From the UHGV virus genome UHGV-0177389: 29,218 nt of DNA; one strand, written 5' to 3'. Below, in pieces: positions 3,376 through 25,588 of this stretch. The translations under genes were made by a program, and so were the position numbers. Source of the DNA: a virus. The notes under the pieces are model-generated. The model saw only the letters and a program-made list of their open reading frames with translations, searched no databases and was not told the origin of the DNA. Numbering within the stretch: the first letter of the stretch is position 1; every line of letters begins with the position of its first letter.

Positions 3376-6092
3376 TATTTAGATCCCCACGAAAAGTAAT
3401 CTTTAAATTTGTCCATACGTTCGTTATGCAGGCGCTGATACTGCTCATCCAGAGCGCGATGCTTGTCTTTGAAGTTTCGTATAGCCTGTCCACGCATAAT
3501 TTCTTCCTGCTCGTACTGCTCCCGTTCCTGCTGCATTTTCTTATAAGGTTCCCAATCTTCTAGTGATGGTTCCCAACGCATAGGACGCCCATGTTTGTTA
3601 TAAAACGGCTGGACCCGATCGATGCCATTTTCATCCTTAGTTCTTACCATAATGGCGTAATCACCATTACGAGGTGTTAACACGTCAGGGGTTATGAATA
3701 ATTCTCCATTAATACGACTCTCAGGGGTTTTTGTCTCAACTACAGGAGCATTACCTGACGTGATCCCAAGCAACGTCGGACTGGTTGTTATAATCTCTTT
3801 GCGCTCACCGTACATCAGCCGTTCTTTTTCAGCTTTCCACTGCGCCGCCTGCCAGCCTGACGGCCCATATTGATAAAGCGCCTCCGGTGCATATTTCATA
3901 AACTGCGCTTCTCCGTTAACCTCGCTGATACTCCAGGTGCGGGCTATCTGCTGGTTGGTCATTTGCTTCGCTACGTCAGCGTTACCACCAGCAACGCGGT
4001 AGTTAATGTCATACAGCGTCTGATAGTCATTACGGAATCTAGCTGCTTCCGGCGTCTGGTCATCCGCAGACGGATCCCAACGGAACCACTGCGCCATATT
4101 GCTGACAGCAGAATTCATCGCCTTGCTGCGATTATTTTTGTACTCTTTTGAACTCTGCGTTGATGCCAATTGAGCTTTAAGAGCATCGGTCTGGTTGTAC
4201 GTCAGGTTCTGCGCCTGCTCGATAGCCGCATCAGCAGACATGCCAGAATCTGTTAGTTGCTTAACAGTCAGATAAAAACCCTGCATATCCTTCGGCATAT
4301 TTCCAATAGATGCATTGTCTGTTTCATATAACCGACTAAACAAATTCGCTGCATTTTTAACCACTTCCTGATTGCTGGATCTGGATACTGCTGAAAGCTG
4401 CGTGATGACCTGCGAAGGCATGATGCCAGTCTGAGCCACAAGCCGAACAACCCCATCATGAGTGGAGGCATCATTAATACGAAAGTTCTGCGCCATTTCT
4501 GTGTAATCAGCAGCTTTCTGCATTGATTTGTTGCTTGGGTCTAATTTTTCACCTATTGTCAGCGCCTCATTGAATCTGCGTGAATCACGTTGCGCCTGAA
4601 TTGCTTCATTTGATCGCTGAAGCAATGCAGACAATTTTCCGTAAGCATCGAGTTTTAACGCATAGTGAGGATCGTTAACCTCAGGCTTCACTTTCTGCAT
4701 TTCTTCTTGCTGCTGAGAAGGAGGTAAATACTGAATTGCCTGGAATATTCTCGCGTTATCAATCGCTATATCCAGTTGATTGATTATTTTATCTGCATTT
4801 TTTCCATACCCCCTGATGATAGTCTCCTGAGCCGGTATATAATCTGGAACCTCACCGTTATATAGCTGGGCCATGGTGTTATTAATAGCTGGCTCAAGCT
4901 GTTCTAATATTAACTTCCTTTGCTTTTCTATCTGACTATTAGCAAGGTTATCTATTTGATAAATAGTCAGCGGATCCATTCCAGTTTTATTTTTTCTATA
5001 TCGGGAAAGCCACCCTTGTGTTTCTGATGGAAGATTTCGGATAAATTCTTCTTCTGATATTTCACCTTTACGTGGATCACCGACTTTGGCGATCAGTTTA
5101 TCCACGTTACCCATCCCCCAGTTATATGCTGCTCCGGTCAATATTTCGGAGCCGTACTTACCATACAGTTGATTTACATAGTCACTGGCGAGCATTTCAT
5201 GCTGTTGTTCGTCCGTAGGGTTGTATTTAACGCCACGCTTGGCCGCCAGTTCTTTCCCTGTGCCCGGCATTAACTGGTATTTCCCCTGGGCTCTCTCTCC
5301 AGAAGATGTTATCGGTCCTTCAAGAAGACTACCATCAGGATTAAAATGTCGATCACCTGATTCAACAAGGCGTATGGCACGCATGTCCATGCCTCCAGAA
5401 TCATTTTTCTGAAACAGACCATTTAGCCATCCTTCTGGATTGGCAGCGGCATAATTCTTCGCCCGCATTTCTGTGGCACGGCGATCATCACTTTCTATTT
5501 CTTCCAGAATGCGTTCTTGTGACCATCCCCTGGCAGCTCCATATCTGGCAATGGCTACCATTCTGGAATTTCTGGCTAAAGTGGCAGTTTGCGGGTCATT
5601 CCAGGCATCCGCTTCATTTTGTATCCATAATTTTCTCGTTGCCTGATATTGCTCATCTTCATAGGCATTTGTCTGCCCTATCTCATGTCTGAGAACTCCA
5701 GTACTGAACTGAATTTTCTGTGTTCTGGCTTGTTGCAAAAACATATTTCTTGCTGCTTCATCAGTCAATGAAGCAGCTATTTCTTCCACATCCTGATCAA
5801 ATCCAGATATGTACTCTTGCCCCTTACCAATCGCATTTTTGCCTTGTTGTGCATAAAAACCGGTTTGAGGGTTATAAAGACGTTCATTGCTGCGCTGATT
5901 AAGCTGAAGGATGGCATCCTGAGACAATGCAACATTCGCTTTCTGCCTGGCTTCACCATATGCCACCGCATACTGATCTGCGACATTCGCCAGCACCTGA
6001 CCTGCTTGAGGAACATCGAAGGTCTGAAAACCACCGGTTTGCACACCACGACTTTGCACCTGGCGTCCGGATACTGTTGGTACGACTGGCAT
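3375..6092 (-). CDS. internal virion protein with soluble lytic transglycosylase (SLT) domain
   Basis: ORF track 3375..6167 trimmed to ATG at 6092, which has GGAGGA 5 nt upstream and overlaps the upstream stop; SLT-like motifs ES...GKYQLM...AAYNWG. Confidence 0.7.
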   Translation of the reverse strand: MPVVPTVSGRQVQSRGVQTGGFQTFDVPQAGQVLANVADQYAVAYGEARQKANVALSQDAILQLNQRSNERLYNPQTGFYAQQGKNAIGKGQEYISGFDQDVEEIAASLTDEAARNMFLQQARTQKIQFSTGVLRHEIGQTNAYEDEQYQATRKLWIQNEADAWNDPQTATLARNSRMVAIARYGAARGWSQERILEEIESDDRRATEMRAKNYAAANPEGWLNGLFQKNDSGGMDMRAIRLVESGDRHFNPDGSLLEGPITSSGERAQGKYQLMPGTGKELAAKRGVKYNPTDEQQHEMLASDYVNQLYGKYGSEILTGAAYNWGMGNVDKLIAKVGDPRKGEISEEEFIRNLPSETQGWLSRYRKNKTGMDPLTIYQIDNLANSQIEKQRKLILEQLEPAINNTMAQLYNGEVPDYIPAQETIIRGYGKNADKIINQLDIAIDNARIFQAIQYLPPSQQQEEMQKVKPEVNDPHYALKLDAYGKLSALLQRSNEAIQAQRDSRRFNEALTIGEKLDPSNKSMQKAADYTEMAQNFRINDASTHDGVVRLVAQTGIMPSQVITQLSAVSRSSNQEVVKNAANLFSRLYETDNASIGNMPKDMQGFYLTVKQLTDSGMSADAAIEQAQNLTYNQTDALKAQLASTQSSKEYKNNRSKAMNSAVSNMAQWFRWDPSADDQTPEAARFRNDYQTLYDINYRVAGGNADVAKQMTNQQIARTWSISEVNGEAQFMKYAPEALYQYGPSGWQAAQWKAEKERLMYGERKEIITTSPTLLGITSGNAPVVETKTPESRINGELFITPDVLTPRNGDYAIMVRTKDENGIDRVQPFYNKHGRPMRWEPSLEDWEPYKKMQQEREQYEQEEIMRGQAIRNFKDKHRALDEQYQRLHNERMDKFKDYFSWGSK

Positions 6093-15346: not shown

Positions 15347-15383
15347 TTGACATTTAATGCACGAATTATTACCCTTCAGGTAA
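15347..15383 (+). promoter_or_regulatory. TTGACA -35-like hexamer followed by a perfect TTACC-N5-GGTAA operator-type palindrome (15369-15383)
   Basis: Seen in sequence; the palindrome matches the immunity-region operators; strand of the promoter is uncertain. Confidence 0.35.
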
Positions 15384-15705: not shown

Positions 15706-15782
15706 GTGGCATTAGCTCAGTTGGACAGAGCAACCGCCTTCTAAGCGGTTGGTCGCAGGTTCGAATCCTGCATGCCACGCCA
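15706..15782 (+). tRNA. tRNA-Arg (anticodon UCU)
   Basis: Manual cloverleaf: 7-bp acceptor stem GTGGCAT/ATGCCAC, D arm GCTC...GAGC, anticodon stem ACCGC/GCGGT with loop CTTCTAA (anticodon TCT), T arm GCAGG-TTCGAAT-CCTGC, encoded CCA. Confidence 0.9.
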
Positions 15783-15825
15783 GAATCACGCCTAAGGACC
15801 GTGATGCCAGAAGTTCCAGGGGCTT

Positions 15826-15867
15826 GGCGGTGATGGTTTCCCTTGAAGGACTATCACCGCCCTTTTT
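15826..15867 (+). terminator. intrinsic terminator candidate downstream of the tRNA
   Basis: 9-bp stem GGCGGTGAT/ATCACCGCC followed by TTTTT. Confidence 0.55.
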
Positions 15868-15945
15868 ACAGCAGGACGCCATTGCGATGACTTCATGCTG
15901 TAAACCAGTACAGCCACGGAAGGCATAACTCATTGCTTCCAGTTC

Positions 15946-15969
15946 GCCCGGTTCGCCGGGCATTTTTTT
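15946..15969 (+). terminator. intrinsic terminator candidate (GCCCGG-TTCG-CCGGGC plus T7 run)
   Basis: 6-bp GC stem with TTCG tetraloop followed by ATTTTTTT, ending about 16 nt before the ATG at 15986. Confidence 0.6.
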
Positions 15970-15985
15970 AAGGTGAGATTAGACT

Positions 15986-16357
15986 ATGAGTGACAAAGAC
16001 ATTGAATCTGAAATTCAGGCTAAAGGTTTAGCCGCGCCGCGCGTTACGCCAGACCATATCGAGAGCATTATTGCTCAGGAGGCATATTTCACAGCAGAAG
16101 ATGGTGTCTTTGGCGTAGCCATAAAAGCGAAACATACTGGCGGAGAGGTAAACTACCAGCCGCACGAATCACTTTCTCTGCTGACGTTCTGCGTTCTGGT
16201 GCTGCGCAACGGCTTCACCGTCACCGGAGAGAGCGCCTGTGCAAGCCCGGAAAACTTTGATGCGGAAATTGGTCGGAAGATTGCCCGGCAGAATGCTGTA
16301 AACAAAATCTGGATGCTTGAAGGTTACTTGCTGAAGCAGAAGTTAAGCGAGCAATAA
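15986..16357 (+). CDS. hypothetical protein (123 aa), opposite-strand moron inside the morphogenesis module
   Basis: ORF track; ATG preceded by AAGGTGAGA; followed by a palindrome and a terminator; function unknown. Confidence 0.55.
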   Translation: MSDKDIESEIQAKGLAAPRVTPDHIESIIAQEAYFTAEDGVFGVAIKAKHTGGEVNYQPHESLSLLTFCVLVLRNGFTVTGESACASPENFDAEIGRKIARQNAVNKIWMLEGYLLKQKLSEQ

Positions 16358-16361
16358 CACC

Positions 16362-16373
16362 GTGACATGTCAC
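16362..16373. repeat. perfect 12-bp palindrome GTGACATGTCAC, copy 1 (14-bp identity CGTGACATGTCACA with copy 2)
   Basis: Seen in sequence; lies between the 123-aa ORF stop and the terminase large subunit stop. Confidence 0.6.
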
Positions 16374-16377
16374 AAAC

Positions 16378-16404
16378 AGCCAGCCGATGAGCTGGCTTTG
16401 TTTT
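16378..16404 (+). terminator. intrinsic terminator candidate
   Basis: Stem AGCCAGC/GCTGGCT with 6-nt loop followed by TTGTTTT. Confidence 0.6.
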
Positions 16405-16447
16405 ATCCTCACCAGAGGATATCTCCGTCATTATCCCCGCTAACGGA

Positions 16448-17923
16448 TTAAGCATAGGGATCGTAATCTGTAATGGCCTTGCCTTGCTGGTTCTGCTGCC
16501 CGGGAATTCGCAGACGCTTAGACACAGGGAACGCAAACGTCAGCAGTAGCGCATCGCCTTTACCCGGCGAACGCCCAAGCCGCTCCTTGATATCTTCCTT
16601 CGGTTCGATAACGATTTTACCGTCCACTCGAACTTTGTACTCTGCCGCCGACAGGTCGTCTGCTGTTTCCTGGTCATCCAGCATCCCGCCCAGCCTCAGC
16701 CATGTCTTGCATGAGTTGAACATCTCCCCACGCTTGTTGAGCATCTGCGGGTCAGTAGACGCGCCACCGAACGGAACAAGTTGCCATGTACGACCCCAGC
16801 CGTCACCGATTGACTTCAGACCAGTTCCGTAACCGAAGTCGATGAACACTGCGTCAGCCTGGTACTGGTCTTCAAAGTCAGCGATACGCTTCGCCATTAT
16901 CAGATCGTCAGTGGTCTTGTTGCCAGTCCACAGCACCTTACTGTGCAGCCCCTGCCGCAGGTATATCACAGCGTCATCAACTCCGGAGTATGCCGGGTCA
17001 ACGCCGATTATCACCGGAGCATGTGCAACCTGCGCAGCGGTTACCACCCGTTTCATTGCCTCATCAGTAAGACCGGTAGGGATAAACTGCAATTCAGATG
17101 CATCAGGGAATATGCCGCGCACACGGATTTTAACGAAGTCGCTGTCTTCCCCGTAGTCATCAACCCATTTCTGCAACTGCTGTTTGTTAGTACCTTCCAC
17201 CGTCCGGCTGTCAATCTGCGCAGTTTTCCAGCGGTGTTTGTATTTGCGGAAACATTCGCGAAAACGCCCGGTATTACGTGTAGGGTTTCCGAACGCCACC
17301 CAGATAATCTCAGTGTCTTCGTCCGTAAGCGCACCCTCAGCAACTTCCCACACCAGATCCGCAATGTTCGACGCTTCATCGAATACCACGATGATGCGTT
17401 TGCGCTCGTTGTGTAGTCCGGCGAATGCCTCAGTGTTGTGCTCAGACCAGGGGATTGCGTCAGCTCGCCACCGCTTGTCGTGCCCAGGATCATTGCTGTA
17501 CATCGCAGTAGCGGTACAGGTAAACCAGTCTTTCGTGATAGCAAGGTTCGACCACTTGATAATTTCCGGCCAGGTCTTCGTTCGTAGCTGGTTGTCGGTG
17601 TTGGCGGTCACCACGACCTTACAATCCTCGCAAGTGGACATGCCCCAGTTGATCAGCATTGAGATGAATGCGGATTTACCAATACCGTGACCAGAAGCGC
17701 GTGCCAGCATAAGCGGCTGATAGCGCGTCTCTGGATTCTGCAGGTGATCACGTATCTCTCGGAACGCATCAGCCTGCCACTGACGTGGGCCGGTAGCATG
17801 TGCCAGTTCAGTCCCCTCTTCCCCCCACGGGAACGCATAGAGGGCATAGCCAAGCGGATCGTGAGTGAACCCTGCAATATCCTCGATCAACTGCTCTTCA
17901 GGAGATAACGCTGTATCTGTCAC
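16448..17923 (-). CDS. terminase large subunit
   Basis: ORF track (GTG start overlapping the terS stop); Walker A-like GHGIGKS and Walker B-like IIVVFDEAS; 491 aa, upstream of portal. Confidence 0.85.
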   Translation of the reverse strand: MTDTALSPEEQLIEDIAGFTHDPLGYALYAFPWGEEGTELAHATGPRQWQADAFREIRDHLQNPETRYQPLMLARASGHGIGKSAFISMLINWGMSTCEDCKVVVTANTDNQLRTKTWPEIIKWSNLAITKDWFTCTATAMYSNDPGHDKRWRADAIPWSEHNTEAFAGLHNERKRIIVVFDEASNIADLVWEVAEGALTDEDTEIIWVAFGNPTRNTGRFRECFRKYKHRWKTAQIDSRTVEGTNKQQLQKWVDDYGEDSDFVKIRVRGIFPDASELQFIPTGLTDEAMKRVVTAAQVAHAPVIIGVDPAYSGVDDAVIYLRQGLHSKVLWTGNKTTDDLIMAKRIADFEDQYQADAVFIDFGYGTGLKSIGDGWGRTWQLVPFGGASTDPQMLNKRGEMFNSCKTWLRLGGMLDDQETADDLSAAEYKVRVDGKIVIEPKEDIKERLGRSPGKGDALLLTFAFPVSKRLRIPGQQNQQGKAITDYDPYA

Positions 17924-18513
17924 TGATTACCATCCTGACGTTCTTTGAGTCGCTTCCTGGCTGCCGCTATGCGATCAGCAATTGTCACATTCACATTAAC
18001 ATCCAGGCGTTCTTTGAATGCATTGACGTCGACGTGCTTACCAATCAGTTCGAGGTTCTTCACCTTGTCAGGCCATTTAATTTTTTTGAGAATTGTCTCT
18101 ATCGAATCCTCGTTCATGTTCATGATGGTCGATGACAGATCAAAGCCACTAAGCGTAGTGCGCCAGATTTTCGGCCACTCGCGGATTGGCTTAAGGCTCC
18201 CATCGTCATTGAGGATATCAATCACGTCCATCTGGTCGATCTCCACCAGGCGCATGAGAACGTAATCGGCACTGACGCGCATTCGTTTGTTGCGCTCCTC
18301 CATCAACTCGGCAATCCGTTTTTGAATGCGTTCATCGCGCATCATGACACTGGCTTTAACTGCCGCTGTATTTGGGGAGAATCCTGCGTTAATCGCTGCC
18401 TGAGTCTGGTTTTCAGGCGTTTTGATGTATGACTGGCAATAAGCCTCCTGCATTGCGGTTAGTGGCTTAAATTGCGTTGATTTGCGTTTATAGGTTTTAG
18501 GTTCAGCAGGCAT
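17920..18513 (-). CDS. terminase small subunit
   Basis: ORF track 17920..18594 starts at TTG and its N-terminal extension covers a terminator hairpin; trimmed to ATG at 18513 (GGTGG 5 nt upstream; ATG at 18516 is the alternative); basic N-terminus; immediately upstream of terL. Confidence 0.6.
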   Translation of the reverse strand: MPAEPKTYKRKSTQFKPLTAMQEAYCQSYIKTPENQTQAAINAGFSPNTAAVKASVMMRDERIQKRIAELMEERNKRMRVSADYVLMRLVEIDQMDVIDILNDDGSLKPIREWPKIWRTTLSGFDLSSTIMNMNEDSIETILKKIKWPDKVKNLELIGKHVDVNAFKERLDVNVNVTIADRIAAARKRLKERQDGNQ

Positions 18514-18557
18514 CATAACCACCGTGGTAATAGTTACCGTTGTGGTAATAGTACCAT

Positions 18558-18585
18558 GCAAAATAAAGCCGCCATAGTTGGCGGC
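18558..18585 (-). terminator. intrinsic terminator candidate immediately upstream of terS
   Basis: 7-bp stem GCCGCCA/TGGCGGC with 4-nt loop, followed on the minus strand by TTTATTTT. Confidence 0.55.
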
Positions 18586-18626
18586 AGTATTCAAAACCCA
18601 TCAAATTCATCATGCATAATCTACTC

Positions 18627-18638
18627 GTGACATGTCAC
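18627..18638. repeat. perfect 12-bp palindrome GTGACATGTCAC, copy 2
   Basis: Seen in sequence; overlaps the stop of the 115-aa ORF, about 115 nt upstream of the terS start. Confidence 0.6.
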
Positions 18639-18982
18639 ACTATTAATTTCGTTTCATGCCAGCCTTTAGTCACCCAGCATTGCGAGTCACCATTACACGG
18701 GCATGAATTAACGGGAACTCTCTCGCCGCACTTACCGCAAAGTTTTCTGCTGATCGATTTTATACGCCCGCGCACACGTGCATCATCCTGGCGGATCAGC
18801 AGCGCGATGTACTCGGCCATTTCATAGGGATCGCGACCAGGGCGCCGGGCGGCGCAGTTCCGCGCCAGCATTTCCTGCTCCTGCTTATCCAGCACCAGTT
18901 CAATTTTGCGCTCACCGGCGGCGGACTGCCGAGCGCGCTGCGCGGCTTTGCGTTCTGCGGGGGATTTAGCCACGAATCGCAC
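18635..18982 (-). CDS. hypothetical Arg/Ala-rich protein (115 aa) with Cys-rich C-terminus
   Basis: ORF track (GTG start; start uncertain); C-terminal CGKCG...CPCNGDSQC suggests a zinc ribbon; last ORF before terS. Confidence 0.35.
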   Translation of the reverse strand: MRFVAKSPAERKAAQRARQSAAGERKIELVLDKQEQEMLARNCAARRPGRDPYEMAEYIALLIRQDDARVRGRIKSISRKLCGKCGERVPVNSCPCNGDSQCWVTKGWHETKLIV

Positions 18983-22406: not shown

Positions 22407-22483
22407 TTACCCCTTAGGTAATTAAAAACCACATAAGACATGAAATCAATAGAGATTAGAACATTTTATTACCTTCCAGGTAA
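22407..22483 (-). promoter_or_regulatory. internal promoter flanked by two TTACC-N5-GGTAA operators
   Basis: Minus strand reads operator (22469-22483), 19 nt, -35 TTGATT (22444-22449), 17 nt, -10 TTTAAT (22421-22426), operator (22407-22421), AAGGGG RBS, ATG at 22403. Confidence 0.5.
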
Positions 22484-22496
22484 TCATATAGACGTA

Positions 22497-24751: not shown

Positions 24752-24814
24752 TCACCCATAAGGTAACAAAAATCAAGGATAGTTACCCATGAGGTGCATT
24801 TACCTGTTGGGTAA
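24752..24814. promoter_or_regulatory. right operator region: three TTACC-N5-GGTAA-type sites plus cro-like promoter
   Basis: Sites at 24752-24766 (TCACC-CATAA-GGTAA), 24783-24797 (TTACC-CATGA-GGTGC) and 24800-24814 (perfect); minus-strand -35 TTGATT (24771-24776) and -10 GAATAT (24748-24753), 17-nt spacer. Confidence 0.55.
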
Positions 24815-24869
24815 TATTGCTTTAAATTGAATCATCTACTGATTCATATATGAGGCGATTTTCCAGAAA

Positions 24870-25499: not shown

Positions 25500-25511
25500 T
25501 TGCCTATTCGA

Positions 25512-25588
25512 TTACCTAACGGGTAATTTTTTTAACTCATATCTATTGACATCAAACCATATACGCATAATTATTACCTCAACGGTAA
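25512..25588 (+). promoter_or_regulatory. left operator region: two perfect TTACC-N5-GGTAA sites flanking a promoter
   Basis: Sites at 25512-25526 and 25574-25588; -35 TTGACA at 25546-25551; -10-like AATTAT about 17 nt downstream; precedes the plus-strand early operon. Confidence 0.55.

Follow-up and report, generated by a model that had tools for sequence, protein, structure and literature searches.

LacI bound at O3, at the 3′ end of lacI, is reported to act as a roadblock to transcription, with non-stop lacI mRNA and SsrA tagging as the outcome (Abo et al., 2000). Other described systems with which the element presented here can be compared are the phage repressor/operator pairs of P22 Arc, Mnt, and lambda Cro, MatP/matS of Enterobacteria, lambda Q and N/nut, and the SopB partition sites of N15 and phiKO2. 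The element is a perfect 12-bp palindrome, GTGACATGTCAC, in the virus genome UHGV-0177389 (29,218 bp; this whole stretch is referred to as the window), where it occurs exactly twice (16362–16373, site 1; 18627–18638, site 2), with 0 copies expected in shuffled sequences. Site 2 encloses the stop codon of a small gene whose homologues are epsilon15 gp49 and N15 gp46. We favour, with moderate confidence, the explanation that the palindromes are the cognate binding sites of this gp49-family protein, which would act on transcription across operon junctions as a roadblock or insulator. They are most likely the sites of this protein because the motif tracks the gene, whose own stop codon lies inside one of the copies. 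A sequence-specific regulator with its sites is a known type of system; the placement of the sites is unusual. The original prediction, made from the letters of the window, had described an identical 14-bp palindromic element at both positions. Both copies were found and the 14-mer CGTGACATGTCACA is identical at the two places, but the palindrome is limited to the inner 12 bp because the outer C...A pair is not self-complementary.

Copies in phiKO2, N15, and phages of Yersinia and Vibrio define the motif as GTGAC-N2-GTCAC; its fuller form is (Y)GTGAC-NN-GTCAC(R), with a 12-bp core. The association with the gp49-family gene was analyzed in 66 loci from different species, which were taken by protein homology only (40–86% identity, 1.22 Mb; Klebsiella, Citrobacter, Pantoea, Xenorhabdus, Providencia, Yersinia, Serratia, a Pseudomonas, and others). 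GTGAC-N2-GTCAC was present 87 times in this DNA, compared with a mean of 1.37 copies for all 1024 analogous 5-mer motifs and 14 copies for the next best. Other spacings of the half-sites (0, 1, and 3–6) gave one to four copies and the reversed half-site order zero to two. The fixed half-site spacing of 2 bp and the dyad symmetry are as expected of a transcription factor operator. The motif was found in 62 of the 66 loci, and genomes carry one to three copies. As a control, 80 loci were chosen via a neighboring DUF551 gene. All 14 of these that contain the family gene carry the motif (18 sites in 235 kb), whereas no motif was detected in the 66 loci lacking it (869 kb). When the open reading frames (ORFs) of eight site-bearing phage types, including Uetakevirus, lambdoid, N15, P2-like, Vibrio, and Yersinia phages, were compared all against all, the gp49-like ORF was the only one of the window common to all of them.

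The two central bases of the site follow the phage clade. The center is AT in 66 of the 87 enterobacterial sites. For the N15-like phages (49 loci), it is TG/CA at 101 of 105 sites, which represent three separate genomic contexts. A Yersinia clade has GC, together with extra GCGTCAC half-sites nearby, and the Vibrio phages have AC, GC, or CC (two loci were found in the search with the Vibrio homologue). The site sequence co-varies with the regulator clade. Since the center differs between N15-like phages and Uetakeviruses of the same host genera, the specificity determinant is phage-borne.

In half of the homology-selected loci (33/66), the palindrome and the stop codon of the homologue share the exact register G-TGA-C, and in 44 the site lies within 30 nt of this stop. 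The candidate operator overlaps the 3′ end of the regulator gene itself in the window, and likewise in N15 and phiKO2. Of all sites, 76% are located at most 5 nt from the stop of an ORF of at least 60 amino acids, compared with 15% of random positions, and a hairpin with a T-run follows within 70 nt of 13 of 44 stop-sites, compared with 3% of control ORF stops. Besides the regulator gene's own stop, the site recurs at the ends of other operons (epsilon15 gp18), where terL meets a convergent gene, and upstream of xis/int. In some relatives, an antirepressor (immI-like) operon situated between the genes for the tailspike and the injection proteins has the site at its end, or the site is found 6–7 bp upstream of the −35 box of a LexA-box promoter that drives a small gene inserted before terS.

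Sites are also located within genes, namely in a cII/YdaT-like gene, in the first gene of a leftward early operon, and in codons 2–5 of the Q antiterminator gene. Inside genes the 12-mer is invariant while the adjoining codons vary (the codon that precedes it in the cII-like gene, for instance, encodes R or C), and therefore the constraint acts on the DNA. The promoter search at the window sites yielded a weak −35-like match (GTGACA) with an 18-bp spacer and nothing stronger, one of the N15 sites follows TATAAA, and many sites lie between convergent genes or within ORFs, where promoters are not expected.

A separate observation concerns the reading frame of the sites within coding sequences, which is always xGT-GAC-ATG-TCA-Cxx (R/C-D-M-S-H/Q). 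It is found in the cII/YdaT-like genes (L029:1499, L036:1398, L252:6144, L262:5441), in Q (L073:1238, L250:256), and in the first gene of the leftward early operon (L222:3890, L262:3259), and in three further loci (L033, L061, L075) the central ATG of the site is the start codon of a gene. With three or four independent contexts, the shared frame may be due to chance.

The window represents an epsilon15/phiV10-like (Uetakevirus) prophage of Escherichia coli. The region is 97–99% identical to E. coli O157 typing phages and phiV10, and the window is 100% identical to a stretch of the E. coli KC-Dl-1 chromosome. The late genes of the window are encoded on the minus strand. The features around the two sites are as follows.

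18635–18982, minus strand: gp49/N15-gp46-family gene (PHROG 536), upstream of terS; its TGA stop (18637–18635) lies inside site 2.
18627–18638: site 2, GTGACATGTCAC, enclosing this TGA stop (minus strand).
18560–18585, minus strand: intrinsic terminator (GCCGCCAACTATGGCGGC followed by a T-run; narrower limits 18585–18568) between site 2 and terS.
18549–18534: operator-like repeat ATTACC-N5-GGTAA before terS; epsilon15 terS has an annotated counterpart upstream.
17920–18594, minus strand: ORF of terS (PF03592).
16448–17923, minus strand: terL, large terminase subunit.
16378–16405: bidirectional terminator hairpin (AGCCAGC...GCTGGCT) with an A-run and a T-run, adjoining site 1.
16362–16373: site 1, GTGACATGTCAC, between the stop of the accessory gene (4 nt away) and the terminator after terL.
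15986–16357, plus strand: converging accessory gene (PF13876, N4 gp49/Sf6 gp66 family).

A stem-loop homologous to the terminator before terS is annotated in epsilon15, and the hairpin after terL is annotated as a terminator in phiV10. In the terL direction, the U-run of this hairpin is poor. This arrangement refines the positions given in the original prediction. The first copy does lie beyond the terL stop, at a distance of 74 nt and with the bidirectional terminator in between rather than "just beyond" it. The second copy is indeed upstream of terS, but it overlaps the TGA of the preceding gene and is separated from terS by a terminator. The bracketing of terS-terL appears incidental because both sites lie at operon ends.

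The start of terS deserves a comment. In the phiV10 annotation, terS has a TTG start and 224 amino acids, and its first 26 codons hold the terminator and the operator-like repeat; epsilon15 terS has 198 amino acids. Because the 5′ extension of the ORF contains both of these elements, the real start is probably the ATG near 18516 (MMPAEPK...). A convincing sigma-70 promoter was not found in the interval between the terminator and terS. The converging accessory gene is preceded by a tRNA-Arg(TCT) gene (ARAGORN, 15706–15782, plus strand), which overlaps an 83-amino-acid ORF on the opposite strand (15712–15963, minus strand) that is a coding sequence in the phiV10 annotation (PhiV10p04, PHROG 4647). 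One of these two annotations may be spurious.

Epsilon15, which is approximately 80% identical overall, carries this 12-mer at the positions that correspond to sites 1 and 2. It contains one copy more, at a distance of 17 kb, over the TGA of gp18 and directly before the terminator that ends the structural operon. All three epsilon15 sites are located at operon ends and adjoin terminators. In phiV10, copies are located distal to terL and at the end of the structural operon, and a copy with one mismatch is found at the stop of gp55, the counterpart of gp49. Among 80 IMG/VR loci coding close gp49-like homologues, 77 have the palindrome at the stop codon; the three exceptions are a deletion, a different phage, and a cut-off at a contig end. 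Site 1 is retained in 51 of 77 close relatives that have a near-identical terminase. Single-base changes such as GTGATATGTCAC and GTGACATGCCAC mark a decayed site 1 in four loci (L129, L130, L156, L162).

The sequence next to the sites is mosaic, and they often adjoin variable "moron" DNA. After site 2 (...GTCACG(A)), at least six unrelated continuations were found among the relatives. Site 1 plus GGYGTTA is followed by at least six unrelated converging genes, all of which stop at one nucleotide, the relatives' accessory genes ending at a shared TAA-CRCC-site junction. We read this mosaicism as selected intergenic sites at operon ends that coincide with spots tolerating accessory genes. In many relatives (L006, L007, L024, L035, L122, L209, L210, L213, L215), a module is inserted before terS, immediately after the palindrome at the gp49 stop. 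At its start are a −35 box (TTGACT or TTGACG), 6–7 bp past the site, and a LexA box (TACTGT-N8-ACAGTA), and it is probably the SOS-controlled antirepressor module known from SPC32H-like phages. The window does not contain this module.

Beyond the Uetakeviruses, IMG/VR was scanned for the exact 14-mer, which gave 120 loci. In lambdoid prophages, protein homologues of approximately 50% identity were found, with the palindrome overlapping or directly following the stop; here, xis and int come next instead of the terminase. About half of the 120 loci probably represent chance or unrelated contexts, for example, a conserved gene family (L058–L120). In five loci of high-GC phages (L023, L042, L052, L071, L109), the 14-mer lies in GTCACG/CGTGAC arrays within replication-initiator-like ORFs. 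Such arrays resemble the iterons of an origin and probably have nothing to do with the gp49-family system. More distant homologues and their sites are listed here.

phiKO2: homologue with 39% identity; GTGACTGGTCAC over its TGA stop.
N15: family member gene 46; the 12-mer of phiKO2 at the gene 46 stop, inside repA, and downstream of TATAAA in the antirepressor locus.
Yersinia P2-like phage: homologue with 38% identity; a perfect copy 3.4 kb downstream of the gene.
Vibrio phage K308: homologue with 35% identity; two GTGACACGTCAC copies, one of them 31 nt upstream of terS.

The protein of the window comprises 112–115 amino acids (family approximately 108–118). By comparison with homologues of 112 amino acids, the true start of its gene is likely the GTG at 18973. 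The family alignment displays an invariant segment rich in arginine and lysine at the N-terminus (AERKAAQRARQ), followed by two more helices and, close to the C-terminus, by four cysteines that are conserved (CxxC...C...C). PHROG 536 is labeled "transcriptional regulator"; the 120 listed homologues are all unnamed or called "hypothetical", "uncharacterised", or "phage protein". The AlphaFold2 monomer has helices at residues 8–21, 33–46, and 55–77. From the pattern of secondary structure, a ribbon-helix-helix fold can be suggested only tentatively. The case for DNA binding thus comes from genomics and not from the fold. A close copy of the gene is present in approximately 13% of the complete E. 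coli genomes (696 of 5426). Full-text searches of the literature returned no paper with the 12-mer and none describing the motif or the function of the protein.

In the mechanism we favour, the gp49-family protein would bind its sites as a symmetric dimer on double-stranded DNA. It would act on already elongating RNA polymerase, as a roadblock or insulator, given that the sites keep away from obvious promoters and are mostly placed within transcription units or at their ends. Transcription of the early operon would be halted at the end of the protein's own gene, ahead of the terminator and terS. Such a halt would resemble the self-limiting arrangement of LacI at O3, in that the bound protein would stall the polymerase before the stop codon and block read-through into the next operon; it would limit the synthesis of the protein and prevent run-on into the late genes. 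Transcription crossing the convergent junction between terL and the accessory gene would be halted as well, and the terS-terL operon would thereby be insulated on both sides.

Several observations weigh against this explanation. The roadblock mechanism is deduced from the positions of the sites alone. A site just before a strong terminator, as at the ends of gp49 and gp18, adds little as a roadblock, and sites before terminators would fit the loading of an antitermination factor equally well. Four of the 66 homology-selected loci have the gene without a site in the DNA fetched, and, conversely, two sites but no family gene were seen in the 14 kb of a lambdoid locus (L028). Of the 77 close relatives, 26 lack site 1 or have it in mutated form in spite of a terL identity of at least 96%; the site is hence dispensable in about one-third of them. 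The gp49-like protein had no sequence match in Pfam, NCBIfam, PADLOC, or the PDB, PHROG 536 being the only assignment. Finally, its AlphaFold2 monomer is of low confidence (mean predicted local distance difference test, pLDDT, of 69) and had no significant Foldseek neighbor in the PDB.

A broader proposal is made tentatively, and we regard it as possible rather than probable. The gp49-like proteins would constitute a widespread, undescribed family of small DNA-binding proteins of temperate phages (Uetakevirus, lambdoid, N15-like, P2-like, and Vibrio phages) that serves as an operon-boundary control system. Its GTGAC-N2-GTCAC sites, whether at stop codons, in between convergent genes, or within early genes close to a promoter, would act on elongating RNA polymerase as roadblocks or insulators or as loading points for antitermination, and the site at the regulator's own stop would provide autoregulation via non-stop transcripts. 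For a family that is labeled "hypothetical" or "transcriptional regulator" in databases and is common in prophages of E. coli, Salmonella, Klebsiella, Yersinia, Xenorhabdus, and Vibrio, the motif offers a concrete partner, and the site positions point to regulation between operons and not at promoters. If true, this would add a new layer of control to the lysis-lysogeny and early-late programs of several model phage groups. It would also bear on the late-gene control of the epsilon15-like phages and explain the clustering of mosaic joints and accessory genes at these points.

Among the other explanations, the one that survives best has the opposite sign. The site might be a loading point on the DNA, as with the lambda Q binding element or RfaH/ops, from which the gp49-family protein would enable the polymerase to read through the next terminator, so that early transcription would proceed into terS-terL and the structural genes. 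In the late direction, epsilon15 has strong terminators directly after the sites at the gp49 and gp18 stops, two of its three sites, and the terminator at the gp18 stop precedes the tail-fibre gene. The gp49-family gene closes the series of early genes ahead of the late ones, as Q does in lambda, and neither epsilon15 nor phiV10 has an annotated Q-like gene or late regulator. The failure to find a convincing promoter between the terminator and terS would also be in accordance with read-through, as would the lambdoid sites in the first leftward early gene and the cII-like gene, which flank the immunity region like nutL and nutR. However, the site after terL comes after the terminator, and antitermination of the accessory gene would give antisense transcription into terL. 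In addition, with operator-like ATTACC-N5-GGTAA repeats ahead of both terS and the gp3 homologue, these operons would seem to be served by regulated promoters of their own, and the lambdoid and N15-like carriers already encode Q. Taken together, we judge a loading site to be unlikely.

Less likely still is an element that acts in the RNA. In 3′ untranslated regions or early transcripts, the palindrome could form a small hairpin (stem of 4–5 bp, CNNG loop) that is bound by the arginine-rich N-terminus of the protein in a manner similar to boxB and N, or that serves as a stability or processing signal in the 3′ untranslated region. Most sites do lie in transcribed DNA, with a stop codon before and a terminator after them, the loop would consist of the clade-specific central bases, and the N-terminus (AERKAAQRARQ...) resembles arginine-rich motifs. 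The predicted hairpin is weak, though (−2.7 kcal/mol, z = −1.1), and the site after terL is located beyond the terL terminator. The orientation of asymmetric centers argues for recognition of the duplex. The three N15 sites are identical as duplexes, yet the one within repA reads CA in the sense transcript and the others UG, and at homologous stop sites asymmetric centers occur in both orientations (AC/GT, CT/AG). With 4 bp in its stem and the same low stability, the palindrome was also rejected as an intrinsic terminator; the real terminators are the adjacent hairpins.

We give little credence to a recombination boundary or hot spot, that is, a linker without a trans-acting partner that travels with the gene by linkage only. 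The sequence diverges directly past both sites, with the six or more continuations and six or more converging genes mentioned above, and in one relative (L201) the recombination joint lies in the middle of the palindrome at site 1, TGTGACAT/TTAAAA. Linkage leaves unexplained the copies at kilobase distances, including those in the cII-like gene, Q, and N15 repA. The strict spacing, the concerted clade-specific center, and the pattern of 14 of 14 versus 0 of 66 loci are not accounted for either, and mosaic joints would be expected beside any selected intergenic site anyway. Of the suggestion that the copies bound an exchanged terminase cassette, the mosaic sequence directly on one side of each copy stands, but it does not show terS-terL to be a bounded cassette. 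Module joints do adjoin the sites, as the original prediction asked to be checked; the variable DNA is downstream of each site, and this holds for sites away from the terminase as well.

Packaging signals (pac or cos) or small-terminase sites for terS-terL are highly improbable. Two copies flank terS-terL in the Uetakeviruses and the Vibrio phage copy is 31 nt upstream of terS, but the motif tracks the gp49-family gene across unrelated terminases and neighbors (xis/int, repA, Q), and site 1 is missing or mutated in the 26 relatives with nearly identical terL. The loss of the post-terL copy in phages with the same terminase is the outcome that had been named in advance as speaking against a link to the terminase, and a constant flanking of the terminase genes does not hold for the copies in lambdoid, N15-like, P2-like, and Vibrio phages, which are found beside xis/int, within a cII-like gene, at the start of Q, or within repA. 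On this distribution, a terminase-specific element was rejected. The end of the phiV10 record within the palindrome was considered as a cos or pac end and dismissed as an arbitrary linearization directly after the final CDS stop, CDS being the coding sequence.

Binding by a host protein such as MatP has an equally slight chance of being correct. The matS sequence GTGAC[AG]N[TC]GTCAC has the same half-sites in the same orientation (PMC3603311), but the spacer of the phage motif is 2 and not 3 (one copy of the spacing-3 form versus 87 in 1.22 Mb), the center differs between phage clades infecting the same host genera, no motif was found in 869 kb of related prophage DNA without the phage gene, prophages avoid matS (PMC3603311), and an hhalign comparison of the family alignment with E. 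coli MatP, whose sequence was checked against PDB 4d8j, gave a probability of 0.1%.

Within the window itself, the duplication is suggestive rather than compelling. The window has six perfect 12-bp palindromes, and a duplicated one arose in 1.35% of Markov-simulated windows. Two identical copies are therefore only moderately unlikely by chance within the window, and the decisive support is comparative. The regulator-binding option in the original prediction fared best of those proposed: the motif co-occurs strictly with one small regulator-like gene and co-varies with its clades.

A second dispersed motif was observed in the window. ATTACC-N5-GGTAA has nine matches versus 0.02 expected, among them 15368–15383, 18534–18549, 22407–22422, 22468–22484, 24800–24815, 25511–25527, and 25573–25588. 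It matches the annotated "repressor" binding sites of epsilon15 and is located in the immunity region as well as ahead of terS and of the gp3 homologue. These locations suggest that the prophage repressor acts directly on the late operons.

The gp49-family protein and its putative sites share traits with several known systems. One analogy is LacI at O3, where a palindromic operator likewise lies over the 3′ end of the regulator's own gene. In contrast to O3, the gp49-family site encloses the stop codon itself, is the most conserved site, and has no evident primary operator proximal to a promoter. Phage repressor/operator pairs such as P22 Arc, Mnt, and lambda Cro are similar in that a small phage protein would recognize a few copies of a short dyad site with a specificity that co-varies between phage clades. 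Unlike these, the gp49-family sites are mostly located at stop codons, at operon ends, and inside genes and not at recognizable promoters, and the protein has no detectable similarity to known DNA-binding folds. MatP/matS of Enterobacteria has in common the inverted GTGAC/GTCAC half-sites and the few dispersed copies; it differs in its 3-bp spacer, as opposed to 2 bp, and in its host-encoded partner, to which the phage-encoded protein has no sequence homology.

With lambda Q and its binding element and with N/nut, the system shares the position of its gene as the last early gene and the sites ahead of terminators and, in the lambdoid relatives, on both sides of the immunity region. In contrast to Q and N/nut, the gp49-family site is not within a late promoter, it appears to be read as a duplex, one site follows its terminator, and the carriers often have a Q of their own. 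The SopB partition sites of N15 and phiKO2 are perfect palindromes of short length too, and they are dispersed over operon boundaries in the genome of a temperate phage. The annotated partition sites of phiKO2 (GTGCGACCACGGTCGCAC; L205:629–646 and 5668–5685) include one just upstream of the annotated late promoter. Their sequence and partner protein differ from those of the gp49-family system, the motif of which is also found in integrating phages without a partition system.

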